NCBI GenBank assembly: GCA_965213675.1
Contig: OZ243916.1
Span: forward strand, 1,472,001-1,536,000
From: an uncultured Candidatus Binatia bacterium
GTDB taxonomy: Bacteria; Desulfobacterota; Binatia; UBA9968; JAJDTQ01
Length of the DNA: 64,000 nucleotides
Direction: 5' to 3'
Below are positions 1,497 to 64,000 of the stretch, one piece after another; positions within the stretch are counted from its first letter, which is position 1; each line of letters begins with the position of its first letter. Made by a program: the position numbers and the translations under genes. The notes below the pieces were generated by a model, which saw only the letters and a list, made by a program, of their open reading frames with translations, did no database searches and was not told the DNA's origin.

Positions 1497-2279
1497 ATGC
1501 GTCTGAGTCCTGAGCAGGTTGAGCGCTACAGCCGGCAGATCATGATCCCCGACGTGGGCGGCAGCGGCCAGATCCGCCTGCGTCAGGCCAGCGTGCTCGT
1601 GGTGGGGGCGGGCGGTCTGGGATGTCCCGCCGCGTACTACCTGGCCGCGGCCGGCCTTGGGCGCCTGGGCATCGTCGACGGCGACGCCGTGGACCTGTCC
1701 AACCTGCAGCGGCAGATCCTTCACACCACGGCCGACCTGGACCGGCGCAAGGTGGAGTCGGCCCGGTCCCGGCTGCTGGCGCTCAACGCCGAGGTGGATG
1801 TGGAGGTCCACGCCACGCGCCTGACCGGCGAGAACGCGACGGAGCTGATGGCACCCTACGACTTCATCATCGACGGCAGCGACAACTTCGACACCAAGTT
1901 TCTCGTGAACGACGTGGCCGTGTCCCTGGGCAAGCCCTTCTCCCACGCGGGCATCGTCCGCCTCCAGGGACAGACCATGACCGTGGTGCCGCCGGAGAGC
2001 GCGTGTTACCGCTGCCTCTTCGAGGAGCCACCGGCGCCGGGGGAGGTGCCCGGCTGCCAGCAGGCGGGCATCCTGGGAGCGGTGGCCGGGACCATCGGCT
2101 CCATTCAGGCCACCGAGGCCGTCAAATACATTGTCGGCCTGGAGGAGCACCTGCTGGTGAACCGGATGCTAACCTACGACGCCAGGGCCATGGAAATTCG
2201 CAACGTACCCGTGGCGCCGAACCCGCGCTGCACGGCCTGCGGCGCGGGAGCGCCGGTTTCTCAAAGGAGTCACGCATGA
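1497..2279 (+). CDS. moeB: ThiF/MoeB-family sulfur-carrier adenylyltransferase
   Basis: RYSRQI, VGAGGLG, DxVDLSNLQRQ, CYRC and C-terminal CxxC; GGAGG RBS before ATG 1497. Confidence 0.9.
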   Translation: MRLSPEQVERYSRQIMIPDVGGSGQIRLRQASVLVVGAGGLGCPAAYYLAAAGLGRLGIVDGDAVDLSNLQRQILHTTADLDRRKVESARSRLLALNAEVDVEVHATRLTGENATELMAPYDFIIDGSDNFDTKFLVNDVAVSLGKPFSHAGIVRLQGQTMTVVPPESACYRCLFEEPPAPGEVPGCQQAGILGAVAGTIGSIQATEAVKYIVGLEEHLLVNRMLTYDARAMEIRNVPVAPNPRCTACGAGAPVSQRSHA

Positions 2280-3541
2280 GCTTTGTTCTAGGACTGCAAT
2301 GCCGGGAGTGCCGGCGGGACTATCCCACGGCGCCCCTGCATGTGTGCGAGGACTGCTTCGGCCCGCTGGAGGTGATGTACGACTACGACGGCATCCGCGA
2401 CAGCGTGAGCCGCGAGAAGATCGCCGCGCGCCCGCGGAACCTGTGGCGCTATCGCGAGTTGCTGCCCGTGGAGAAGGAGCCCCGGGTGGGCCTCTACTCC
2501 GGCTTCACCCCGCTCATCCGGGCCCGCCGCCTGGGGCAGGCGCTGGGCGTGCAGGAGTTGTACCTCAAGGACGACTCGGTGAACCATCCGACTTTCTCCT
2601 ACAAGGACCGGGTGGTATCGGTGGCCATCTCCAAGGCCATCGAGTTCGGCTACGAGACCGTTTCGTGCGCCTCCACCGGCAACCTCGCCAACTCGGTGTC
2701 GGCCCACGCCGCCAGCGCGGGCCTCAATTGCTACGTCTTCATTCCCGAAGGCCTCGAGGAGGGGAAGATCGTCGGCTCGGCCATCTACGGCCCGCGCACC
2801 GTGGCCATCAAGGGGACCTACGACGACGTGAACCGGCTGTGCAGCGAGATCGGCGACAAGTACCAGTGGGCCTTCGTCAACGTAAACCTTCGGCCCTACT
2901 ACTCCGAAGGCGCCAAGACCCATGCCTTCGAGGTGGCCGAGCAACTCGGCTGGAAGCTGCCGCGCCACATCGTGGTGGGCTCCGCGGGGGGCACCATCCT
3001 GCCCAAGCTGGGCAAGGGGTTCAAGGAGTTGCGCACGGTGGGGCTGGTGGACCCGGACGAGCCGTGCAGCATCTACTCCGCGCAGGCCGCCGGCTGCTCT
3101 CCCATCATCGACGCGCTCAAGCGCGGCACCGACGTCGTGGACCCGGTGAAGCCCGACACCATCGCCACATCCATCGCCATCGGCAACCCGGCCGACGGCT
3201 ACTACGTCATCCAGACGCTCCATGAAACCGGCGGCTGGGGCGAAAGCGTCACCGACGAGGAAATCCTCGACGGCATCCGCCTGCTGGCCTCCACCGAGGG
3301 CATCTTTACCGAACCCGCGGGCGGTACCGAGGTCGCAGTGACCAGGAAACTCATCGAGCAGGGACGGATCCCGCGGGACGAGTCCATCGTCATCTCCATC
3401 ACCGGGAACGGTTACAAGACCATCGAGACCGTAGCCCGCATCATCGACCGGCCCTACAGCATCGACGCCGGCCTGAACGACTTCGACGAGTTGTACGGCG
3501 CCCTGACGCGCGCGACCGAGCCGGACGCGAAGGCCGGATGA
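2276..3541 (+). CDS. Threonine synthase-like PLP enzyme (possible O-phosphohomoserine sulfhydrylase)
   Basis: N-terminal zinc ribbon (CREC..CEDC), PTFSYKDR PLP lysine, CASTGNLA; ATGA overlap with moeB stop. Confidence 0.85.
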   Translation: MSFVLGLQCRECRRDYPTAPLHVCEDCFGPLEVMYDYDGIRDSVSREKIAARPRNLWRYRELLPVEKEPRVGLYSGFTPLIRARRLGQALGVQELYLKDDSVNHPTFSYKDRVVSVAISKAIEFGYETVSCASTGNLANSVSAHAASAGLNCYVFIPEGLEEGKIVGSAIYGPRTVAIKGTYDDVNRLCSEIGDKYQWAFVNVNLRPYYSEGAKTHAFEVAEQLGWKLPRHIVVGSAGGTILPKLGKGFKELRTVGLVDPDEPCSIYSAQAAGCSPIIDALKRGTDVVDPVKPDTIATSIAIGNPADGYYVIQTLHETGGWGESVTDEEILDGIRLLASTEGIFTEPAGGTEVAVTRKLIEQGRIPRDESIVISITGNGYKTIETVARIIDRPYSIDAGLNDFDELYGALTRATEPDAKAG

Positions 3542-3663
3542 GCGGACCCCGTCCGGCCCTCGACACGGATGCCCGCTCAGCGTGGGATCGTCGTGCGCGA
3601 GCCGCGGAAGCTGTTGAAATGGTCGGGTCCGGGTTCTATCCTGATCGAGAAGGAGGTTCTTTC

Positions 3664-3942
3664 ATGAGTGTTCGTGTACGCGTACCCACGCCGCTGAGAA
3701 AATTCACCCAGGGATCGGACGAAGTCGACGTCAACGGCGGCACCGTTCTGGCCATGCTGGAGGATCTGGAGCAGAAGCATCCCGGCATCAAGGAACGCAT
3801 CATGGACGAAGGCGGCAAGGTGCGCCGGTTCGTGAACGTCTATGTCAACGGCGACGACATCCGCTTTCTGCAGAACGTCGACACCGCGTTGAAGGACGGC
3901 GACAGCATCTCCATCGTCCCCGCCATCGCCGGCGGCGTTTGA
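3664..3942 (+). CDS. MoaD/ThiS/CysO-type ubiquitin-like sulfur carrier
   Basis: MSVRVRVPTPLRK...FVNVYVNGDDIRF...PAIAGGV; AGGAGG RBS. Confidence 0.9.
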   Translation: MSVRVRVPTPLRKFTQGSDEVDVNGGTVLAMLEDLEQKHPGIKERIMDEGGKVRRFVNVYVNGDDIRFLQNVDTALKDGDSISIVPAIAGGV

Positions 3943-3969
3943 CCGTCCAACGGATTCCGCGCACGCCCC

Positions 3970-4965
3970 ATGCTCGCCGCGCTGAAACAGGACGGCGCTT
4001 CGCCGCCGCGCAAGCCACGCAAGGTCGACCGCATCGTCGAGCTTGTCGGCAACACGCCCTTGGTGCCGATCCGGCGGATCACCCGGGGACTGTCCCGGGG
4101 TGTGCGGGTGCTGGCCAAGCTGGAGGGCTTCAATCCGGGTGGGTCGGTCAAGGACCGCCCCGCCCTCAGGATGATCCGGGAAGCCATCGACACAGGGCAG
4201 CTCAGTCCCGGCCGCACCCTCATCGACTCCACTTCGGGCAACACCGGCATCGCCATCGCCATGATCGGCGCGGCGCTGGGCCATCCCGTACGGCTTGTGG
4301 TGCCCGCCAACGTGAGTGAGGAACGCAAGAACATCATTCGGTGGTTCGGCGCGGAGATCGTCTACAGCGATCCGCTGGAAGGATCCGACGGAGCCATCCG
4401 CCGCTGCCGCACCATCGTCGCGGAAGAGCCGGAACGGTACTTCAAGCCCGACCAGTACTTCAACCCGATGAACAGTCAGGCCCATTACGAGACCACCGGT
4501 CCCGAGATCCACGAACAGACCGAAGGGAGCGTCACCCACTTCATCGCCGGCATCGGCACCGGCGGCACCGTGATGGGGGTGGGACGTTTCCTGAAGGAGC
4601 GGGATTCGCGCATCCGCGTGATCGCGGCCGAGCCCGACTCGGCGCTGCACGGGCTCGAAGGGCTCAAGCACATGGCCAGCTCCATCGTTCCGGGGATCTA
4701 CCGGGAGGATGAGCTCGATCTCAAGATCCCGGTGTCCACCGAAGATGCCTACGACATGGTGTACCGGCTGAGCCAGGAGGAGGGGCTGCTGGTGGGGCAA
4801 TCCTCCGGCGCGGCCATGGTGGCGGCCATGGGTGTCGCCCGGCGGCTCACGCACGGCACCGTGGTGGTGGTGTTCCCCGACTTCGGTGCGCGTTACATGA
4901 CCACGAACCTCTGGACCACCTGGAAGGAAAGCCTTGACGTCGGCAACGTGGACTTTGCCATCTGA
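3970..4965 (+). CDS. cysM: PLP-dependent cysteine synthase (CysM-like)
   Basis: VGNTPL, NPGGSVKDR, TSGNTG and GTGGT motifs. Confidence 0.88.
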   Translation: MLAALKQDGASPPRKPRKVDRIVELVGNTPLVPIRRITRGLSRGVRVLAKLEGFNPGGSVKDRPALRMIREAIDTGQLSPGRTLIDSTSGNTGIAIAMIGAALGHPVRLVVPANVSEERKNIIRWFGAEIVYSDPLEGSDGAIRRCRTIVAEEPERYFKPDQYFNPMNSQAHYETTGPEIHEQTEGSVTHFIAGIGTGGTVMGVGRFLKERDSRIRVIAAEPDSALHGLEGLKHMASSIVPGIYREDELDLKIPVSTEDAYDMVYRLSQEEGLLVGQSSGAAMVAAMGVARRLTHGTVVVVFPDFGARYMTTNLWTTWKESLDVGNVDFAI

Positions 4966-8682: not shown

Positions 8683-8850
8683 CGCCGTCCTGACCGGCCG
8701 CAGGCGGTTTACATCGCGACTCTCATCCTGACTCTCATCCTACTTGTCGCGCCATACCAGCTGAGTACCTCGCACCCGTACTGTGAGGTGGTCCCGGAAA
8801 ATCGGACAGGTTGCCAAGGTGTATTCCACCGACCGAAGGAGGGATACGCA

Positions 8851-9128
8851 ATGAGCACACGACGACGGTTCAGCGGAGACTTCAAGGCGAAGCGCTGGAG
8901 GCGCTGCGCGGAGACAAGACGATCCAGGAGCTCGCGGCGCGGCACAAGGTCCATCCGAACCAAGTGAGCACGTGGAAGCAGCGTGCGGTGGAGGGGATGA
9001 AGGAGGTGTTCTCGAAGGGAGCCGAGCGGGCACGAGGAGACCACGAGGGGGAGGTCCGGGACCTGCACGCGAAGATCGGAGAGCTGACGGTGGAGCGGGA
9101 TTTTTTGGCCAAGGGGCTCAAGTGGTGA
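8851..9128 (+). pseudogene. IS3 transposase OrfA (HTH), frameshift near 8890
   Basis: MSTRRRFSGDFKAK then frame change to ALEALRGDKTIQELAARHKVHPNQVSTWK. Confidence 0.75.
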
Positions 9129-10048
9129 GCCGGGAGAAGCGCCGGGGGATGATCGAGCCCGGCCATCCCAAGCTCAGCTTGAGCCGTCAATGCCATTTGC
9201 TTCGAGTGAGCCGATCCTCTGTGTACCACAGGCCCAAGGGCGAGAGCGCGGAGAATCTGGCGTTGATGCGCCGGATCGACAAGCTGTTCCTGGAGTACCC
9301 CTTCTACGGCAGCCGCCAGATGGTCCGCCATCTGTGGCGGGAGCGAGTCCGAGTGGGTCGTCACCGGGTGCGGCGTCTGATGCGCCTGATGGGGCTCCAG
9401 GCCATCTATCAGGCGCCGCGCACCACCCAACCGCACCCCGAGCACCGGGTCTATCCCTATCTGCTCAAGGGGGTCGCCATCGAACGGCCCAATCACGCGT
9501 GGACCTCCGACATCACCTATATCCCTGTCCAGAGTGGCTTCCTGTACCTGGTGGCGGTCATGGACTGGGCCACCCGCCGGGTGCTCTCCTGGAGGCTGTC
9601 GAACACCCTCGATGCCCGCTTCTGTGTCGAGGCCCTCTCAGAGGCTCTGGAACGCTACGGCCCTCCCGAGATCTTCAACACGGACCAAGGCAGCCAGTTC
9701 ACCAGCCTGGAGTTCACCTCCGTCCTCAAAGACTCCGGCATTGCCATCTCCATGGACGGAAGGGGCCGGCGCATGGACAACATCTTCATCGAGCGCCTGT
9801 GGCGCTCCCTCAAGTACGAGGCTGTCTACCTGCACGAGCTGACCGACGGCTTCGCCGCCCAAAGGGCCATCGCCAACTGGCTCCACTTCTACAACACCCA
9901 AAGACCTCATTCCGCCCTCGCCGGCTCCACCCCGGCGGAGGCCTACGAACGAGGACTCCAGAGGCAGGCCGGACCTCACACCCCGCCCGCCCCTCTGACA
10001 GTTCCTTCGGAACACGAAGACCTGATAAACGGGACCTTGGCGGCATGA
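9125..10048 (+). CDS. IS3 transposase OrfB (rve integrase core)
   Basis: WTSDITY, NTDQGSQF, DNIFIERLWRSLKYE, YNTQRPHSAL. Confidence 0.9.
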   Translation: MSREKRRGMIEPGHPKLSLSRQCHLLRVSRSSVYHRPKGESAENLALMRRIDKLFLEYPFYGSRQMVRHLWRERVRVGRHRVRRLMRLMGLQAIYQAPRTTQPHPEHRVYPYLLKGVAIERPNHAWTSDITYIPVQSGFLYLVAVMDWATRRVLSWRLSNTLDARFCVEALSEALERYGPPEIFNTDQGSQFTSLEFTSVLKDSGIAISMDGRGRRMDNIFIERLWRSLKYEAVYLHELTDGFAAQRAIANWLHFYNTQRPHSALAGSTPAEAYERGLQRQAGPHTPPAPLTVPSEHEDLINGTLAA

Positions 10049-10111
10049 TCGATCGTCTGGAATACACCTTATCTCCGCCGCCTTCCTGTCCTACAAACCA
10101 GGACCACCTCA

Positions 10112-10341
10112 CCTACAACCCGGATTGGGCAGTCCTAATCGAGTCTGACGAGGGCGAACGCCTGTACTTCGTGGTGGAGACGAAGGCCAGCACCCTCGTT
10201 GACGACCTTCGCGGCACCGAGAACGCCAAGATCCAGTGCGGCAAGGCGCATTTCAAGGCGCTCCAACGGGGTGAGGCCCCACCCCAGTACGAGGTCGCCA
10301 CCAGTGTAGACCAAATTCTCGCGAGTATAGGCGGCGGCTAA
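10112..10341 (+). pseudogene. C-terminal stub of a type III restriction Res subunit
   Basis: YNPDWAVL..LYFVVETK..ENAKIQCGKAHF (PD-D/ExK nuclease end), cut exactly at the IS3 right end. Confidence 0.78.
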
Positions 10342-21742: not shown

Positions 21743-21900
21743 GTGTCGTGTCCCGTAAATTACTGCGACAAGTTGCGCAGGATTTTTGTTGCGTGCAAGG
21801 CGCGATGACGAGCAGTGGCGGACACCACGCGAGGAAGCGCCACGCAGCCGACGGCGAAAAAGACCCGCAAATTATCGCGATAATTTACGGGACACGACAC
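21743..21900 (+). mobile_element. ~160-bp hairpin MITE-like element, family A copy 1
   Basis: IR GTGTCGTGTCCCGTAAATTA/TAATTTACGGGACACGACAC; core GCGCGATGACGAGCAGTGG..CCACGCGAGGAAG shared with three other copies. Confidence 0.8.
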
Positions 21901-21935: not shown

Positions 21936-22328
21936 ATGAGAACCGAAATTGCGCCCAAGAGCATTCCCGACCCCCGCCCGCGCTACACCCAGGGCATCCT
22001 GGCGGAAGGCAAGCGCCTGCTCTTCATCGCCGGCCAGACCGGGGTGGACGCCGACAACAACGTCGTCGGCAAGGGCGACGCCGGCGCCCAGGCCGAACAG
22101 GTCCTCAAGAACATGAAGGCGGTGCTCGACGAGGCCGGCGCCAGCTTTGCCGACATCGTCAAGATCACCACCTACATCACCGACCCGCGCTTTCGCGACG
22201 CCCTCACGCCGGCGCGAAGCAAGTACTTCGGCGCCAACCCGCCCGCCAGCACCCTGGTGGTGGTCAGCGGCCTCGCCAGCCCCGACTACCTCGTGGAGAT
22301 CGAAGCCATCGCGGTACTGCCGGACTGA
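21936..22328 (+). CDS. RidA/YjgF-family protein
   Basis: LFIAGQ, NMKAVL, PASTLV, LVEIEAIA; AGGAGG RBS. Confidence 0.9.
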   Translation: MRTEIAPKSIPDPRPRYTQGILAEGKRLLFIAGQTGVDADNNVVGKGDAGAQAEQVLKNMKAVLDEAGASFADIVKITTYITDPRFRDALTPARSKYFGANPPASTLVVVSGLASPDYLVEIEAIAVLPD

Positions 22329-36889: not shown

Positions 36890-36967
36890 TCCAGCTCTCG
36901 CGCGGAATCCGATGACAAGCGGCGTCACCGAACCTTCGCTCCTCGCACGGCATTCCTCAATCTGCTA

Positions 36968-37126
36968 GTGTCGTGTTCCACGTAAATGTTGACGAAGATG
37001 CGCAGGATTTTTCGTTGTCGGCAAGGCGCGATGACGAGCAGTGGCGGTTACCACGCGAGGAAGAGCAACGCAGCCGACGACGTAAAAGACCAGTAGGTTT
37101 GTCAACATTTACGTGGAGCACGACAC
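36968..37126 (+). mobile_element. MITE-like family A copy 2 (followed by the start of a truncated copy at 37129)
   Basis: IR GTGTCGTGTTCCACGTAAATGTTGAC/GTCAACATTTACGTGGAGCACGACAC; shared core; CTAG at left junction. Confidence 0.8.
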
Positions 37127-37181
37127 TCGTGTCGTGTCCGGTTCATCGAACTCTTACTCCACCACTCGCCTCCGATTCAAG

Positions 37182-51196: not shown

Positions 51197-51355
51197 GTGT
51201 CGTGTCCCCTAAATTCCTGCGACAAGTTGCGCAGGATTTCTTGCTGTCGGCAGGGCGCGATGACGAGCAGTGGCGGGCGCCACGCGAGGAAGAACAACGC
51301 AGCCGACAGCGAAATAGACCCGCAAGTTATCGCAGGAATTTACGGGACACGACAC
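51197..51355 (+). mobile_element. MITE-like family A copy 3
   Basis: IR GTGTCGTGTCCCcTAAATTCCTGCGA/TCGCAGGAATTTAcGGGACACGACAC; shared core. Confidence 0.8.
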
Positions 51356-55716: not shown

Positions 55717-55875
55717 GTGTGTTGTCTGGTTAATACGCGTCATAATCTGCGGGTCTTTTTCGCCGTCGGCTGCGTTGCTCTTCCTCGCGTGGTACCCACC
55801 ACTGCTCGTCATCGCGCCTTGCCGACAACAATAAATCCTCCGCAGATTATGACGCGTATTAACCAGACACCACAC
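55717..55875 (-). mobile_element. MITE-like family A copy 4 (reverse)
   Basis: CTAG at both junctions; IR GTGTGtTGTCTGGTTAATACGCGTCATAATCTGCGG/CCGCAGATTATGACGCGTATTAACCAGACAcCACAC; core on the minus strand. Confidence 0.82.
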
Positions 55876-57595: not shown

Positions 57596-60500
57596 TTACC
57601 AGCGGGTGCGGATTTCGAGTCCGAAGCGGTGCTCCGCGGGGGCGTGGTCGCTGTCGCGCCGGGTGGTCTTGATTCCGAGGGAGAAGTCTGGGCCGTTGGG
57701 CGCGGGCTCCAGGCGCCAGCCGAGGGTGTATTCGCGGCCGTTGGGGGCCAGGCCGTAGCCGACGTGCGGACTGCCGGTGTACAGACCAGAGAAAGCCGGG
57801 AGTCCCCACGCGGCTTCCGCGGTCCACCGGGGCATGAGCTCACTGCCGGGGCGCTCTCCGATGGACTCCGCGTCGAACAGCGCGTCGAGTCCGCCGGAAG
57901 CCTGTCCGCCCAGTTCGTGGCGCAGCGTGAACGACAACCCGCGTTGGCTGGCCGGGTCGGGGTCGTAGGCGACGGCGCCGGAAAACCCCCGGTCCCTGCG
58001 CCCGTCCGCCTCATGCGACAGCAGCGTACGGCCCCGCACGTCGATGTCGAGGCCGTACCGCGGGACGATCCAGGTGACGCCGCCGCCCAGTTCGATGCCG
58101 AACCCGGTCTCGGCATCGCCGCCATCGTGACGCACACCCGCCTCCAGCCTGGGCGTAAGCGCGCCCCCGCCCCAGGCAGAGCTTGATTCAAGTGTTCCAG
58201 GCGCCAGCGTCCAGCTTCCCTTCAAACCCAACCGGAACCGGGTCACGTCCGCCTCCGACGCCGCCAACTCCCCATTCCTGTCCGAGGTCGTGCGCACCCA
58301 CATGCCGTCCGACACCACCGCCCACGCCAAGCCGCTGGCGAAGGACGGCGCCGGCAGGTCGCCGCGCAACCCCGTCGCGGCCAGCCGCCAGCCCGTGTCC
58401 GCCTTCAACGCGGAACCCAACTGCGCCCCGGTGAAGTTCTCCTCCGGCTCGTACGTCACCCGACCCTGACCGTAGCCCGCCGCGCCCCACAGTTTCAGCC
58501 GCTCCGTCGCCTGCACCGCGCCGTAGGGGATGGCCGCGGTCAGGGTGGAATCGAGCTTGCCCGAACCCGTGCCCGGGTCGTTGTAGCCGCCGTCGCCCCA
58601 GCCCTGCACAAGCGCGAGTCCCAGGAGCCACCGGTCGCGCGCATAATCGGCGCCCAGCATGGCCGCGGTGACCTCGCCGTCGAGACTCAGTGCCTTCTCC
58701 TTGCCGTCGAATCTCGTGTACGCGCCCCGGCCCCAGAACGCCACCGCACCGTCCTTCGCGTCCGGGTCACCGGTCAGGGTGAACGCGCTCCCCGCCAGCA
58801 ACTCCCTGCCCCTCATCATCCGCCCTGCGCCATGAGGCCCGGGCACGCCCGGACCGTATCCGAGAGTGCCGGGATCAGGAACCGGTCCAGCCCGGTTTCC
58901 GGTTGGGCGAGCGTAACTGCCCGTCCCCGGCGCGGCCGTCACCGGTTCCTGACCGCTACCGGCCACTTCGCGGCCCCCAAGAGCGTGGCCGCCCACCCTG
59001 CCCTGAAGACCCGGCGTCCGGGATGCCTCCATGCGGGCTGTGATGCCGTCGAGCGCCTGCTCGGCCACCGTGCGGCCGAAACGGGCGAGCCAGGCGTCGG
59101 GCAGCGGGTCGGAGTTCTTGATCGTGCCCGTCCCCTCGCCGTCGTCGATGGTCGCGTTCTCGGGGTAGTACAGGATGACGGTGAAGGTCTCATCGCCCTC
59201 GTCGTGGGCGTCGTCGAAGGTCGGTATCCAGATCTCAAACCGTTCGCTGCCGGGGTAGATGGTGGCGTTATTGCTGGTGAAGGGATAATCCTCCGATTGA
59301 CGGGCGTTGCCGTAATTCTGGCCGTCAAGGGTCCCCGATTCGGTGCTGTAGGTGAAGCTCACCTTGTGGGCTACGGGTTTCGACAGCGTTACCTGGAAGT
59401 AGACCTCGTCACCTTCCTCCGCCGAACCGTCGCTGATGGAGAGTGTTGGCAGGCCGTCGTTGTCGTGAATGGTGGCCTCGGCTTCGTTCCTGGGCGCCGC
59501 CGCCACGGTGTAGCCGGTGCCTGACTGCACCGTAGTGGTTACGGTGGCGCTGGAGGGGTCTTCCTCAATGCTGTCGTCGATGGTTCGCACGCTCAGCGTC
59601 GCTTGTTCCTGGCGCGCCGGGATCGTCACCTGGCGAGTGCCGGCATCGGCGCTGTTCACGAACGCGTTGCCCGGTTCGGCGACCTGAACCGTCACCTCGA
59701 GATCCGCCTCGGGGGCAACATCGGCGTGTAGGGTGAATTTCAGCGTGGTGCCCTCGAAGTCGGGTGAGTTCGGGAAAGCCGGACGCGTCGCCTGCTCCGA
59801 GGTCACGCGAATCTCAGGCACCGGCACGTCGTCGTCGGTTACCGACACGCTCGCCTCGTTCGTGGACGCCACCCGGTAGTGCGAGCGCGAGACGACTCGC
59901 GCCGTCACCGTGCCGTCGCGCTCGTCGCTGTCGTCGTCGACGGTGGCCACCGTGTGGGTCGCCGTGGCCGTGTTGGCGGAGAAGGTCACCGTCTTCTCGC
60001 CGGTGGTGCCCTCGGCGGCGAAATCCCCGCGCTGGGAGATGTCGAGGTGTACCACTAGATCCGCCGTCGGGGTGGGGCTGGCGCTCAGGGTGAAGCTCGC
60101 GGCCTGGCCTTCGCCCACCGAGGCGGCGTCGCGACTGATGCTGATCTGCGGCAGCGGCTCGTCGTCGTCGTTGACCGTCACCGAATACGAGCCGCTCTGG
60201 CTGTGCACGGTGTAGCCCGTACCGCTTCGTACCGCCGCGCTGATGCTGCCATTGGGTTCGTCGGTGCTGTCGTTGTTGGTGGTGACGCTGAAGGTCGCCG
60301 TGCCGCTGCCGCCAATGGTGATGCGCCGGGTGCCGGTCTGGCCGCCGCGAGCGAAATTGCCGCTCTGGGTCACATCGACGTTGACGCTGATGCTGCCCTG
60401 CGGCGCGGGCGAGGCGGAAAGCGTGAAGGTGGCCGTGCCGCCCTCGGTGATGGCGCCGCCACCGGAAATGCTGACCGCCGGTGTGGGCGGCGGCAGATCG

Positions 60501-63500
60501 TCGTCGTTGACCGCAATCGACGCCGAACCGCTGCTGCTCGACGGCGAGTAACCCTGGCCGCTGGCGATGGTGGCGGTGAGGCTGCCGTCCGGCTCGTCGG
60601 TGGTGTCGTTGTCGGTGGTGACGGTGAGGGTGCCGCTGCCGCCGGTGCCGATGGTGACCTGGCGTGATCCGGACTGGCCGCTATTGGCAAAACTGCCGCT
60701 GTCCACCACGTCGATGTTCACCGTGATCTGGCTTTGCGGCGCCGGGGTCGCGCTCAGGTTGAAGGTGGCCGTGCCGCCCTCGGTAATGGTGCCGCTACCG
60801 CTGATGCTCACCACCGGCGTCGCCGGGGGCGGGTCGTCGTTGTCGGTGATGGTGAGGGTGTGGACGGTTTGGCCGCCGAGCTGGTAGCCGCTGCCGCTGC
60901 CGCTGGTAAGGCTCAGTCGCACGGTTTCGTTGGGCTCATCCCTGCTGTCGTCGATGATCGAGACGGGAATGCTCGCGCTGCTTGCGCCGGCGGAGACCTG
61001 CAGGCTGCCGGCGCCGGAAATGCTGTAGTCGTTGCCGCCGCCCGTGGCGTTGCCGCTGACGTCGTAGCGCAGCGTGATGCCGGTCGTCAGCGCCGGGTCG
61101 AAATCGACTTGGATGTTGCGGGTGCCCGCGCCTTCGCCGGCGGTCGATGACGATGCGGTGAAGCTCGCCTCCGGCCGCGTCGCGTCATCGTTGTCCTGCA
61201 CCGTAATCGAGGCGGAGTCGAACACCGCGTCGGGGTCGTAGCCGTTGCCGGGGTCGACGGTCGCCGTGATGGTGCCGTTGGCCTCATCGTCGCTGTCGTT
61301 ATCGGTGGTGACGTGGAGGAAGCCGGTCCTGCCGCCGTTGCCAATGGTGACCGTTCTGGCGCCGGTCTGTCCGCTGTCGGCGAAGTCGCCGCTTTCGGCG
61401 ACGGTCACGTTTACGTCGATGCTGCCGCTCGGCGCCGGGGTGGCGATCACCCGGAAGCGGGCCGTGCTGCCTTCGGTGATCGCCCTTCCGGAGTCGGGGT
61501 AGATCGAAATCAGCGGCTGCACCTCGGTGTCGTCGTCGGTGATCACGACCACCATCTGTTCCGCGGTCACGTTCGCATACTCGCCTGTTCCCCGCACCTC
61601 GTGGTCGATGCGCACGACATGGTCGTGGGTGTCGGAATCCTGCATCGCGGTCACGGAGACGGGCTGTGGCTCGTTCCAGTTCCCGGGCGTGAAGGTGAGC
61701 GTGGTCTGGCGCGCCGGGGCATCCTGGCCGCTGTGTACCTGGGCCCTGCGCTCGTTCTGGCTGGTCGCGATCACCGTCACGTTCGCCGCCGGCGCACGGT
61801 TGAGCACCAGGCGATAGTCCTGGGGCTGGCCGCCTTCGGTGACGGGCAGGCTGACGGGGCGGACGGTGACGCCGGCCTGCGCTTCCTCGTCGTCACGAAT
61901 GGTGATCGTGGTCGTGGCCGGCGGAGGACCGTGGAGTTTCGTCCCATGGATATTGGTTCGAACGTTGCTTCCTCCCCGCGTCGTGTACTCCCGGGCGTAC
62001 CGAACCTCCAGACGGAAGGTCTCGTCCCGTTCGTAGTGGTCGTCCTGCGAGATGGGAACCGATACCGACAGCCGCGTTTGCCCGGGTTCGAACCAACTGA
62101 ATATCTCACTGTCAAACTGGGTGTCCCTTCTGCCGGCGGACTCGTATTCGTAATCGAAGACGCCAATGACCCAGCCTTCGAGCTCCTGGGAGAGCACAAG
62201 GACCACATCCAAGGTGCCGCCCTCGGTCACTTCGTAGTTGTCCCGCTCGAAGGCGATCGTGGGTATTTCGCTCAGGTTGAAGTCCACCGAGCCGCTACTC
62301 AACCCGCTGCCGGAGGCGCCGCCGTCGAGATTGGTGCCGGAATTGGCGTCGAGGGTACCGAGGCTCACCGTCACCGATTCGCTGCCTTCCTCGACGTTGT
62401 CCTCGATGCCGGTGATGGTCAGGGTCGCGGTGGCCGAGGCATTGGCGCCGCCGGTGAAGGTGACGCTCGCGTTACCGCTGTTGAGGTTGTTGCACTGCAC
62501 GCCCTGGGCGCTGGCGCAGGCGACCGTGTATTCGCTGTTGCGGTTGGCGACGCCGCCGAAATTGAGCGGCACCGTCAGCACTTCGGGGCTGACGAGGGCC
62601 CGGCCAAGCCCCAGGGTGAGGGTCTTGGTCCCGCCGTTTTCGGAGACGCTGCCCGTTGGCGCCGACAGCGTCACCAGGGTCGGGTCCTTGTCCACGATGG
62701 TGACGGTGGCGGTTGACTTCGCCGAATCGACACTGAGGCCCGCAATCGCACTCGGCAACGACAGCGTGGCGGTGAAGGTCTCCCGGGGCTCGTCGAGCAC
62801 GCTCTGGTCGATGCCGGGGCTCACCTGCTTACTCGACGCGCCGGAGCCGATGCTCGGGTCGGCGTTGTTGCCGCCGCTGCCGGTGCAGCGGGAGGTGCTG
62901 CGGACGACGCCGGTGAAATCGTCGCCGAAGGTGGCGCTCTCGCCCGCGAGGCAGACGCGGAAGCTGACCGGGCCGGTGCCTTCGGACAGCTCGGCGTTCA
63001 GGTTCACCGCGTTCGAACTCTCGTTCACGGTGACGGCGGTGGTCTGCCAGCCGATGGTGCGGCCATCGTTGATGGTGAGGTTGAAGCTGTTGTTGCTGCC
63101 GTGGGGGTCGGCGCCGCCGCCGACGTTGGTGGCGAGGGTCGAACGGTCGAAGCCGTTGGCGCCGCTGCCGTCGGGGCCGAGGGCGAGGGTCAGGGTCTCG
63201 CCGCCGCTCTCGGTGGTGCCATCCACGGTGGCGGTGAGTTCCAGGGTCGCCACCCGGGCGCCGGCGCCCGTGAAGCGCACATTCGGATTTTGCCCCGTCA
63301 CGTTGCTGAGCGACACGCCGGTGTTGGCTGCGCCGGCTTTCTTCGCGAGGTTCCAGTCGCCGGTGGTGATGTTGGTGCCGCTAGTGCTGAGCGGCACGTC
63401 GATGATTTCGCCGGCGACCAGCGCCCGCCCCAGGGTGACGGTGAACTCGGCCTTGCCCGCCTCGTAGATGGCGCCGCTGCCGACCCGGGCGAGGCTGACC

Positions 63501-64000
63501 ACGGTGGGGTCGTCGTCAACGATGGTGGCGGTCACCGTGGTCTTCGAAGTGTCGAGGCTGAGGCCGGTGACGGCGCTCGGCAGCGACAGCGTGGCGGTGA
63601 AGGTCTCATCGGGCTCATCGGTGGTGTCGCCGTTGACGGTGAAGGTCACCGCCTTGCTCGACTGACCGGACGCGATCTCGAGATCGGCGTTCGAGCCGCC
63701 GCTGCCGGTGCAGGCGGCGTTGCTGCTCGTGCCGAAGCCGCGGTAGTCGGCGGAAGCGCCGCGGCTGGCGCTGCCGTCGGCGAGGCAGACGCGGAAGGTG
63801 ACGGGGCCGTTGCCGGTGGAGAGGCTGGCGTTGACGCTGCCGGTAGTCTGCCCGGCATCGGTCTCGTTGATGCTGAGCGCGGTGGCGGACCAGCCGATGC
63901 TGCGCGGGTCGTTCACCAGCACCGTGAAGCGGTTGTTCGTGCCGTGGGGGTCGGCGCCGCCGCCGACGTTGGTGTCCGCGTCGTTGTCGAACTGCGTGTT
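57596..64000 (-). CDS. Giant Calx-beta repeat adhesin with C-terminal beta-barrel (5' end outside window)
   Basis: Frame stays open to 64000; repeated DxxDEPDETF..T.TI.DDD modules; AWLARFGRTVA helix, then barrel ending in TRW. Confidence 0.9.
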   Translation of the reverse strand, partial: NTQFDNDADTNVGGGADPHGTNNRFTVLVNDPRSIGWSATALSINETDAGQTTGSVNASLSTGNGPVTFRVCLADGSASRGASADYRGFGTSSNAACTGSGGSNADLEIASGQSSKAVTFTVNGDTTDEPDETFTATLSLPSAVTGLSLDTSKTTVTATIVDDDPTVVSLARVGSGAIYEAGKAEFTVTLGRALVAGEIIDVPLSTSGTNITTGDWNLAKKAGAANTGVSLSNVTGQNPNVRFTGAGARVATLELTATVDGTTESGGETLTLALGPDGSGANGFDRSTLATNVGGGADPHGSNNSFNLTINDGRTIGWQTTAVTVNESSNAVNLNAELSEGTGPVSFRVCLAGESATFGDDFTGVVRSTSRCTGSGGNNADPSIGSGASSKQVSPGIDQSVLDEPRETFTATLSLPSAIAGLSVDSAKSTATVTIVDKDPTLVTLSAPTGSVSENGGTKTLTLGLGRALVSPEVLTVPLNFGGVANRNSEYTVACASAQGVQCNNLNSGNASVTFTGGANASATATLTITGIEDNVEEGSESVTVSLGTLDANSGTNLDGGASGSGLSSGSVDFNLSEIPTIAFERDNYEVTEGGTLDVVLVLSQELEGWVIGVFDYEYESAGRRDTQFDSEIFSWFEPGQTRLSVSVPISQDDHYERDETFRLEVRYAREYTTRGGSNVRTNIHGTKLHGPPPATTTITIRDDEEAQAGVTVRPVSLPVTEGGQPQDYRLVLNRAPAANVTVIATSQNERRAQVHSGQDAPARQTTLTFTPGNWNEPQPVSVTAMQDSDTHDHVVRIDHEVRGTGEYANVTAEQMVVVITDDDTEVQPLISIYPDSGRAITEGSTARFRVIATPAPSGSIDVNVTVAESGDFADSGQTGARTVTIGNGGRTGFLHVTTDNDSDDEANGTITATVDPGNGYDPDAVFDSASITVQDNDDATRPEASFTASSSTAGEGAGTRNIQVDFDPALTTGITLRYDVSGNATGGGNDYSISGAGSLQVSAGASSASIPVSIIDDSRDEPNETVRLSLTSGSGSGYQLGGQTVHTLTITDNDDPPPATPVVSISGSGTITEGGTATFNLSATPAPQSQITVNIDVVDSGSFANSGQSGSRQVTIGTGGSGTLTVTTDNDTTDEPDGSLTATIASGQGYSPSSSSGSASIAVNDDDLPPPTPAVSISGGGAITEGGTATFTLSASPAPQGSISVNVDVTQSGNFARGGQTGTRRITIGGSGTATFSVTTNNDSTDEPNGSISAAVRSGTGYTVHSQSGSYSVTVNDDDEPLPQISISRDAASVGEGQAASFTLSASPTPTADLVVHLDISQRGDFAAEGTTGEKTVTFSANTATATHTVATVDDDSDERDGTVTARVVSRSHYRVASTNEASVSVTDDDVPVPEIRVTSEQATRPAFPNSPDFEGTTLKFTLHADVAPEADLEVTVQVAEPGNAFVNSADAGTRQVTIPARQEQATLSVRTIDDSIEEDPSSATVTTTVQSGTGYTVAAAPRNEAEATIHDNDGLPTLSISDGSAEEGDEVYFQVTLSKPVAHKVSFTYSTESGTLDGQNYGNARQSEDYPFTSNNATIYPGSERFEIWIPTFDDAHDEGDETFTVILYYPENATIDDGEGTGTIKNSDPLPDAWLARFGRTVAEQALDGITARMEASRTPGLQGRVGGHALGGREVAGSGQEPVTAAPGTGSYARPTGNRAGPVPDPGTLGYGPGVPGPHGAGRMMRGRELLAGSAFTLTGDPDAKDGAVAFWGRGAYTRFDGKEKALSLDGEVTAAMLGADYARDRWLLGLALVQGWGDGGYNDPGTGSGKLDSTLTAAIPYGAVQATERLKLWGAAGYGQGRVTYEPEENFTGAQLGSALKADTGWRLAATGLRGDLPAPSFASGLAWAVVSDGMWVRTTSDRNGELAASEADVTRFRLGLKGSWTLAPGTLESSSAWGGGALTPRLEAGVRHDGGDAETGFGIELGGGVTWIVPRYGLDIDVRGRTLLSHEADGRRDRGFSGAVAYDPDPASQRGLSFTLRHELGGQASGGLDALFDAESIGERPGSELMPRWTAEAAWGLPAFSGLYTGSPHVGYGLAPNGREYTLGWRLEPAPNGPDFSLGIKTTRRDSDHAPAEHRFGLEIRTRW

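Follow-up and report, generated by a model that had tools for sequence, protein, structure and literature searches.

Between the genes of a 64-kb stretch of Candidatus Binatia DNA (the window, i.e. the whole stretch that was analysed) one long hairpin recurs four times, which raises the question what kind of element this is and why its centre stays constant while its arms do not. The preliminary description had proposed that the folded single strand is under selection, either as the substrate of a mobiliser that recognises single-stranded DNA or RNA or as an undescribed structured RNA. Our analysis indicates that the repeats, termed Family A, probably represent a non-autonomous transposon (MITE) of the IS630/Tc1-mariner superfamily which is resident in genomes of Candidatus Binatia, a class within the candidate phylum Binatota.

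The four intergenic copies of 158-159 nt that had been reported in the window are real, related to each other and all located between called genes, with genes being called heuristically as open reading frames of at least 80 amino acids and a GC3 above 0.75. A 17-mer taken from the centre has exactly four matches in the window compared to 0.46 expected, and a 41-nt pattern that spans the apex likewise had four in the window versus none in 100 shuffled sequences. A covariance model (R1) derived from 91 copies identified these four copies only when it was run on the 64-kb window (Table 1). Each of them forms a single long hairpin, the z-scores relative to dinucleotide shuffles ranging from -9.0 to -13.7. 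Copy 1 lies 3' of a plus-strand gene that ends at about 21722 and 5' of a RidA/L-PSP-like gene (ATG at 21937). Copy 2 occupies the divergent region between an MscS-like gene (minus strand, start at 36928) and a plus-strand MFS transporter gene. Copy 3 is situated in a 1.25-kb gap with a minus-strand gene on either side and is antisense to both, and copy 4 is found 17 nt upstream of the start of a minus-strand TPP-enzyme gene (55700). At the far end of the window, on the minus strand at 57599-64000, an open reading frame of more than 2134 amino acids with Calx-beta repeats runs off the window.

Table 1. Positions of Family A copies, their parts, candidate mobile elements and copies carrying other hairpin repeats. 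Positions without a locus name refer to the window.
Feature	Position	Strand	Size or parts	Basis or remark
Copy 1	21743..21900	+	158 nt	R1, 155.4 bits
Centre of copy 1, variant	21791..21852	+		by reading and column counts
Copy 2	36968..37126	+	159 nt	R1, 184 bits
Centre of copy 2	37017..37078	+		by reading and fold
Centre of copy 2, 5' half		+	GTCGGC 37017-37022; GATGACGAG 37030-37038; GTGG 37041-37044; loop 37045-37050	
Centre of copy 2, 3' half		+	CCAC 37051-37054; GAGGAAGAG 37057-37065; GCCGAC 37073-37078	
Solo left-end fragment of a second element	37129..37143	+	GTGTCGTGTCCGGTT	abuts copy 2
Copy 3	51197..51355	+	159 nt; centre 51246-51307	R1, 165.2 bits
Copy 4	55717..55875	- (G.A strand)	159 nt; centre 55765-55826	R1, 184.1 bits
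IS3-family element	8783-10112		28-nt imperfect terminal repeats; ORF 8972-10045	NF033516, 272 bits
IS630-family element, complete	L063:1617-2767		1.15 kb	adjoins a canonical Family A copy, one TA in common
Transposase ORF of the IS630-family element	L063:1668-2765		365 aa	NF033545 IS630 family transposase, 254.8 bits (cutoff 100)
Nested-repeat copies	L004, L067, L072, L100, L101			OZ244869
Nested-repeat copies	L046, L093			OZ253480
Copies with REP-like apex	L062:2228-2422; L062:2416-2606; L080:1588-1708; L090:185-247; L072:7-158; L003			

Relatives were collected from a genome collection with a pattern of the centre in which the apical stem and one closing helix were fixed and the G.A columns were left free. 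At least 102 loci carry this pattern. The matches listed come from 16 metagenome-assembled genomes, which are titled Candidatus Binatia (9), Thermodesulfobacteriota (2), Deltaproteobacteria (2), Syntrophobacterales (2) and Solirubrobacteraceae (1), and they comprise 106 distinct pattern matches, 95 of which have the canonical 5' strand. The 11 non-canonical ones are seven copies with a nested repeat (see below), one copy at a contig end (L040), one with loss of the left arm, copy 1 of the window, and the match in Solirubrobacteraceae (L054), where the remainder of the element is missing and which was treated as a chance match. For alignment A2 we used 91 full-length copies, leaving out the seven nested-repeat copies, L071, L054 and the contig-end copies L040, L047 and L102, as well as L003, L024 and L017:2274-2448, which were truncated or chimeric. 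The sampling of copies was sparse and conditioned on the centre. With the exception of one orthologous pair the flanking sequences are unique among 103 copies, and at least 15 genomes contain copies, which occupy many different sites. Family A is small (158-159 nt), non-coding, multi-copy (4 copies per 64 kb, at least 102 loci) and dispersed.

The element reads TA/GTGT...ACAC/TA, slashes marking its boundaries. GTGT..TGTC and the flanking TA are conserved to at least 90%, and the terminal inverted repeats follow GTGTnnnGTCyCnCAAATA. Drifting ends had been ascribed to the family, which is correct for most of the arm, but the outer four bases, the TGTC and an AAT-like block are conserved. TA is present on both sides of most copies, abutting elements have one TA in common, and the boundary is CTAG on the left of 73 and on the right of 69 of the 103 copies. 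From these flanks we infer a 2-bp duplication of TA on insertion. Flank pairs of the type TTAG...CTAA fit the duplication of a TA within TTAA and thus argue against a 4-bp direct repeat; these pairs and the IS630 partner described below also speak against a 4-bp duplication of CTAG as in IS5 or IS3/IS407, which was rejected. In copy 1 of the window the flanks are CAAG and CCAG, which means that TA is degraded at both its boundaries. In L011, L020, L031 and L058 the flanking dinucleotides were changed complementarily (TG...CA or CA...TG) and not directly. This is not predicted by plain target duplication; it looks as if a process that keeps the hairpin reached into the duplicated TA.

CTAG is a rare target. 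The window contains 12 CTAG compared to 198.5 expected from base composition, i.e. an about 16-fold under-representation. Of these 12, four form boundaries of elements and another two are stop codons. Among the 76 elements with enough flanking sequence the boundary TAG is the stop codon of the neighbouring open reading frame in 24 cases, the first G of the element rebuilding the stop codon. The rarity of CTAG, together with the fact that free CTAG often are TAG stops, would explain why many insertions fall exactly on stop codons. As to other tetranucleotides of the window, TTAA, CTAA and TTAG are, like CTAG, depleted 10- to 25-fold versus base composition, and GATC and CATG are enriched about 1.6-fold.

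A transposase gene flanked by ends of this kind, for which the preliminary description had advised to search, was found in L063 and belongs to the IS630 family (Table 1). Its product contains DDE_3 and HTH domains according to Pfam, the HTH domains being N-terminal. The reading frame crosses the right inverted repeat (IRR) and stops at a TAG made up of the flanking TA and the next base. The ends of this insertion sequence, GTGTCGCGTCCCGCAAATA and GTGTACTGTCCCACAAATA, each have a CTAG flank and display the Family A end pattern. The consensus end of the MITE agrees with the IRR in 17 of 19 bases, and the rows L002 and L052 of a sub-family that occurs in the L063 genome agree in 19 of 19 by reading. 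According to the cited sections of one study, insertion of IS630 elements takes place at TA and duplicates these 2 bp, and no more than about 24-30 bp at either end are required (PMC2170065). Judged by its ends, Family A most likely has an ordinary DDE transposase as its mobiliser. The L063-type transposase or its relatives would move the element in trans, by cut-and-paste into TA. Two observations count against this assignment: only one copy of the insertion sequence was present in about 310 kb, and several sub-families, e.g. GTGTCCTGTCCGGTTAATT, differ from the L063 ends at presumed binding positions. Because of the end pattern, the TA within CTAG, the L063 element and the precedent of RUP (see below) we filed Family A as a new IS630-type MITE family.

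Local alignment of the MITE interior with the L063 insertion sequence gave a score of 13 versus 10.2 ± 1.9, and 55 of 500 shuffles reached 13. Since there is no significant interior similarity, descent of the MITE from that insertion sequence is not shown. A collinearity seen by eye between the left half plus centre of the MITE and the end of the insertion sequence antisense to the transposase C-terminus was dropped, as the alignment did not support it, and an exact GAGGAAGAG about 100 nt from the left end of the L063 element was treated as coincidence. The IS3-family element of the window was rejected as a partner because its ends differ (TGTGAGGTGGTCC...) and its flank is TAC.

With terminal inverted repeats, TA within CTAG and an IS630 DDE transposase with like ends, there is no need for a mobiliser that recognises single-stranded DNA or RNA, contrary to what had been proposed. 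If folded single-stranded DNA were the transposition substrate of an HUH/Y1 enzyme such as TnpA of IS200/IS605 or RAYT, this would agree with the strand asymmetry and the compensated arm changes reported below and with the complementary flank changes in four copies; the repeated nesting of two other hairpin repeats in the apex might likewise mean single-strand exposure. Yet the terminal repeats and the symmetric TA flanks set Family A apart from IS200/IS605 and REP/RAYT elements, as does the DDE partner. Furthermore, no HUH domain was detected among 37 proteins of the window, and the orientation of copies along three chromosomes (17, 13 and 12 copies) did not show a two-block replichore pattern by eye. 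We regard such a substrate as highly improbable.

The arms were analysed in alignment A2. There, 98.5% of the cells are in a standard pair, compared to 83.1% after shuffling and 32-50% when the partner was slid by 1-3 columns. The covariation score of 0.416 likewise exceeded those of shuffled (0.123) and slid (0.05-0.09) alignments, and none of 500 shuffles scored as high. The arms thus diverge between copies yet remain complementary within each copy, as had been noted for the four window copies, with a covariation far above chance in 91 copies. Both sides have changed in 29 of the 33 pairs of the arm helix; many of these pairs exist as three or four types and are seldom broken. By their arms the copies group into 24 clusters, of which the larger ones are common to up to 8 genomes, and within one sub-family copies are nearly identical across genomes. 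Compensated double changes account for 47 of the 99 distinct variant states within arm clusters, and many of the compensated changes are transversions seen in single copies. The MITE arms are complementary even at end positions 5-7, where the two ends of the IS630 element itself differ. The orthologous pair L028/L098 has flank identities of 196/227 and 221/249 (11-14% different). The two elements show 11 differences, all in the arms, of which 8 make up 4 compensated pairs, and the central 100 nt or so are free of changes. As a side observation, the left and right arms of L067 belong to different sub-families and are non-complementary; this copy looks recombinant via the common centre.

Arm covariation alone is no proof of an RNA, because template switching in a palindrome can give a like signal. 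In the cited part of the literature, quasipalindrome template switching is reported to perfect inverted repeats mutationally and without selection (PMC7202029). The complementarity of the Family A arms would arise from intrastrand templating on fold-back, by quasipalindrome template switching or hairpin repair, from selection for the hairpin, or from both. That such a process would have left the mismatches of the centre untouched points to purifying selection on the centre or to conversion among copies.

The fold of the centre comprises a GUCGGC/GCCGAC helix, three GA/GA doublets spaced by single U-A and C-G pairs, GC/GC, a bulged A, and a GUGG/CCAC stem with a hexaloop. This is the fold originally put forward, with the restriction that copy 1 of the window deviates from it. 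There the 5' closing helix reads GCGTGC in place of GTCGGC, the outermost 3' doublet is GC, and two intact GA/GA doublets are retained instead of three, with the 5' strand GATGACGAG at 21804-21812. Copy 1 is a slightly degraded variant of Family A. The near-invariance of the G.A positions extended to the larger sample: they are conserved in 89-91 of the 91 copies, in contrast to the loop, whose columns lie 4-8 nt away and are free to vary. Doublets 1 and 2 are separated by U-A in 84 and by C-G in 7 of the 91 copies, and this pair is broken in none; the seven copies with C-G may have a single common origin. One open frame runs through the centre and both covarying changes are synonymous in it. 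Yet a coding explanation was rejected because all three codon positions are invariant in the centre and TAG precedes the element.

How much of this constancy is due to sampling had to be considered, because the large sample, in which the centre is nearly invariant, was selected by an exact pattern of 23 bases from the centre. A purely selfish young family, whose centre is frozen by recent descent from few masters and by the 23-base search and whose sole function is transposition, would account for the near-identity of sub-family copies across genomes. It would also agree with the about ten further copies that were found without the pattern, as most of them are damaged: one is intact, five have a REP-like hairpin (GTAGGGGCG...) in the apex and four have lost the centre. 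On the other hand, representatives of the 24 arm clusters differ on average by 40% in the left arm and 37% in the loop, compared to 4.4% in the centre columns that were left free by the pattern. The central 60 nt are about 10 times more conserved than arms or loop. The lack of central changes in L028/L098 in the face of 11-14% divergent flanks and the intact centre in all four window copies, which are an unconditioned sample, also speak against a young family, and we consider this explanation unlikely.

Of the two strands, the one that carries the G.A doublets is the better-folding one in 87 (RNA parameters) and 90 (DNA parameters) of the 91 copies. For the whole element the RNA energy of the G.A strand was -102.1 compared to -91.0 kcal/mol for the complement, a difference of 11 kcal/mol that comes mostly from conserved G.U pairs. 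For the centre alone, nearest-neighbour calculations yielded a strand difference of about 1.3 (RNA) and 0.8 (DNA) kcal/mol. Among closely related copies, one-sided transitions that create G.U were more frequent than those that create A.C (40 vs 14, p 0.0005). The excess of G.U could be due to strand-biased C-to-T mutation or deamination instead of selection. The earlier statement that only one strand can form the structure thus holds in so far as there is a strand-specific constraint, but the energy gap of the centre alone amounts to only about 1 kcal/mol. Selection on the folded strand, as had been suggested, is in line with this real one-strand constraint; covariation alone does not prove it.

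The orientation to genes was asymmetric, too. Where a gene 3' end is at most 30 nt away, the G.A strand is sense in 35 and antisense in 15 cases (p 0.007), and where the boundary TAG serves as stop codon the ratio is 20 to 4 (p 0.0015). Gene 5' ends did not show an orientation bias (7 vs 8). Because insertion of an IS630 element into a palindromic target is expected to be unoriented, the bias at 3' ends looks like sorting after insertion. A U-tract 3' of the hairpin was not found. On the basis of the sequence data we tentatively suggest that the centre might function at the RNA level, as a stable 3'-UTR hairpin in transcripts of the G.A strand, a role that we consider possible, if short of probable. 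Such a hairpin would protect the 3' end or be a terminator without a U-tract, and would make insertions behind genes tolerated or useful. It is doubtful whether Family A might, beyond this, constitute a transposon-packaged structured RNA module set behind hundreds of Binatia genes and acting in the sense transcript. This module would consist of a helix of three G.A/A.G doublets alternating with single Watson-Crick pairs, and of a closing stem of free sequence. It could serve as a stabiliser, U-less terminator or protein platform, i.e. as a mobile 3'-UTR element, and would account for the contrast between a frozen centre and arms that turn over by way of compensated changes.

The main rival to a 3'-UTR hairpin is a protein-binding site in duplex DNA. 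The centre would then be bound by a host bending protein or be an internal transposase enhancer and would help to bring together ends 159 bp apart, resembling the IHF site of the 155-bp Correia element, and its pairing potential would be incidental. Conservation of the centre at nearly every position, paired or not, the small computed energy asymmetry of the centre alone, and an element length that is almost constant across sub-families (180 alignment columns with very few gaps) are all compatible with such a site. Moreover, the cited sections on the Correia element include the proposal that its central IHF site aids transposition (PMC2229807). A duplex site leaves unexplained, however, the double change from U-A to C-G (7 of 91, none broken), the excess of G.U over A.C and the orientation bias at 3' ends. 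By eye, the centre did not contain a convincing match to the IHF consensus. Thus a duplex site appears rather unlikely, and we keep to the 3'-UTR hairpin as the tentative role of the centre.

Alternatively, the element could be the gene of a free-standing structured RNA with a G.A-rich centre that binds a protein, mobility being secondary. In favour of this, RNAs that bind proteins are typically built like the element, with a conserved centre closed by a variable, covarying stem. Yet by reading of the A2 alignment there is neither a conserved promoter nor a conserved terminator nor a three-base bulge as in a kink-turn, and copies occur in all gene contexts. With Rfam 15 at the gathering threshold the whole window gave a SAM riboswitch at 1264-1367 alone, the elements being unmatched, and a scan of L010, L012 and L028 at E up to 1 left the elements in these three loci without a match as well. 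Hence a free-standing RNA is very unlikely, and the term undescribed, used from the outset for a possible RNA, stands because the elements match no Rfam family. The riboswitch itself is a SAM-I riboswitch (80.1 bits) upstream of genes for a PLP-enzyme, a ThiS-like protein and a PLP-enzyme (1622-4962). A blastn search against plasmids and phages did not match the element. Among the publications listed by a literature search on repetitive elements and MITEs of Binatia or Binatota none contained a Binatia term, and a 2024 review on prokaryotic MITEs mentions neither IS630 nor CTAG nor covariation.

Some Family A copies harbour other repeats. A second hairpin repeat, GTCCTTCGAC...CTCAGGAC, in forms of 28 nt or 57 nt, is nested in the 5' G.A strand of seven copies (Table 1). 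It is located at a constant spot, where it replaces 3-4 bases, and the seven copies, which have at least four types of arms, occupy distinct loci. Either mobility does not require an intact zipper or the spot is repeatedly targeted. Sequence similar to this repeat is also present outside of elements, in the flank of L015. In further copies (Table 1) the apex is interrupted by, or has given way to, a REP-like hairpin whose head is GTAG (TGTAGGGGCGACCGGCGGTCGCCCCTA). Other hairpin repeats apparently enter Family A preferentially at the apex. Core-less derivatives were observed as a 41-nt mini hairpin in L097, as a copy of about 70 nt without centre at L087:154-230 and, in the flanks of L004 and L022, as two micro-elements with 10-18 nt between two TAs (e.g. 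CTAGTGTCCTGACACTAG); they may be deletion products or footprints.

The safe part of these findings is a high-copy MITE family with a likely IS630 partner in a candidate phylum that is known from metagenomes only; its copies can be masked or annotated with the covariance model. The arms provide a clean natural case of paired evolution in a palindrome, with about half of the recent variants being compensated, and they warn that covariation does not by itself establish an RNA where DNA repeats are palindromic. If the centre acts in RNA, a transposon would spread a ready-made 3'-UTR module via a 16-fold depleted target that contains a stop codon.

Finally, we compared Family A with known systems. 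REPINs and REP elements, which are moved by RAYT, are hairpin repeats in the 3' regions of genes whose arm changes tend to be matched; they carry a GTAG head, lack TA flanks and have a partner of the HUH/Y1 type. Family A differs by its terminal repeats, TA flanks and DDE partner, and REP-like hairpins are nested in some of its copies. With sheared G.A motifs, i.e. kink-turn, C/D box and hammerhead core, Family A has in common doublets beside a Watson-Crick stem and a 5' GAUGA; it differs in having three doublets in register one pair apart and no three-base bulge. In a kink-turn a three-base bulge is followed by two sheared G.A pairs, and in box C/D RNAs the C box RUGAUGA goes with the D box CUGA. 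Reading of A2 against these definitions revealed a single bulged A and no CUGA partner, so that kink-turn and box C/D were rejected. A hammerhead was rejected because C3, U4 and A15.1 of the consensus are absent by reading and Rfam did not report a match; SRP-like and sigma-54 readings of the centre were discarded by reading and Rfam.

Like ISY100 and other IS630/Tc1-mariner elements in the cited sections of PMC2170065, the L063 element has a single gene for an HTH and DDE transposase, imperfect terminal repeats and TA flanks. In contrast, Family A has no gene, and its arms are complementary over about 60 nt compared to the about 24 bp protected by transposases of this kind. The Correia element or NEMIS of Neisseria, as portrayed in the cited part of PMC2229807, has about 155 bp and TA termini, and its long-hairpin transcript affects neighbouring mRNAs. 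It resembles Family A in length, TA termini, hairpin and a conserved central motif, the IHF site (PMC2229807). By that partial description the two are set apart by the 24-26-bp terminal repeats that Correia conserves, as most of the Family A arm varies. The centre of Family A, moreover, is a quasi-palindrome with G.A and G.U instead of an IHF site, and a likely transposase partner was found for Family A. RUP of pneumococcus, with 107 bp and 9-bp terminal repeats, is proposed in the cited sections to be moved by IS630-Spn1 (PMC2229807). A conserved asymmetric centre or covarying arms are not described for RUP in these sections, and its host belongs to a different phylum (PMC2229807). Both are small and non-coding with IS630-like ends and many intergenic copies. 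RUP inserts at TA, as is likely for Family A, and is thought to be moved in trans, as proposed here for Family A; as far as described in these sections, RUP is thus the precedent for a MITE mobilised by an IS630 element (PMC2229807).
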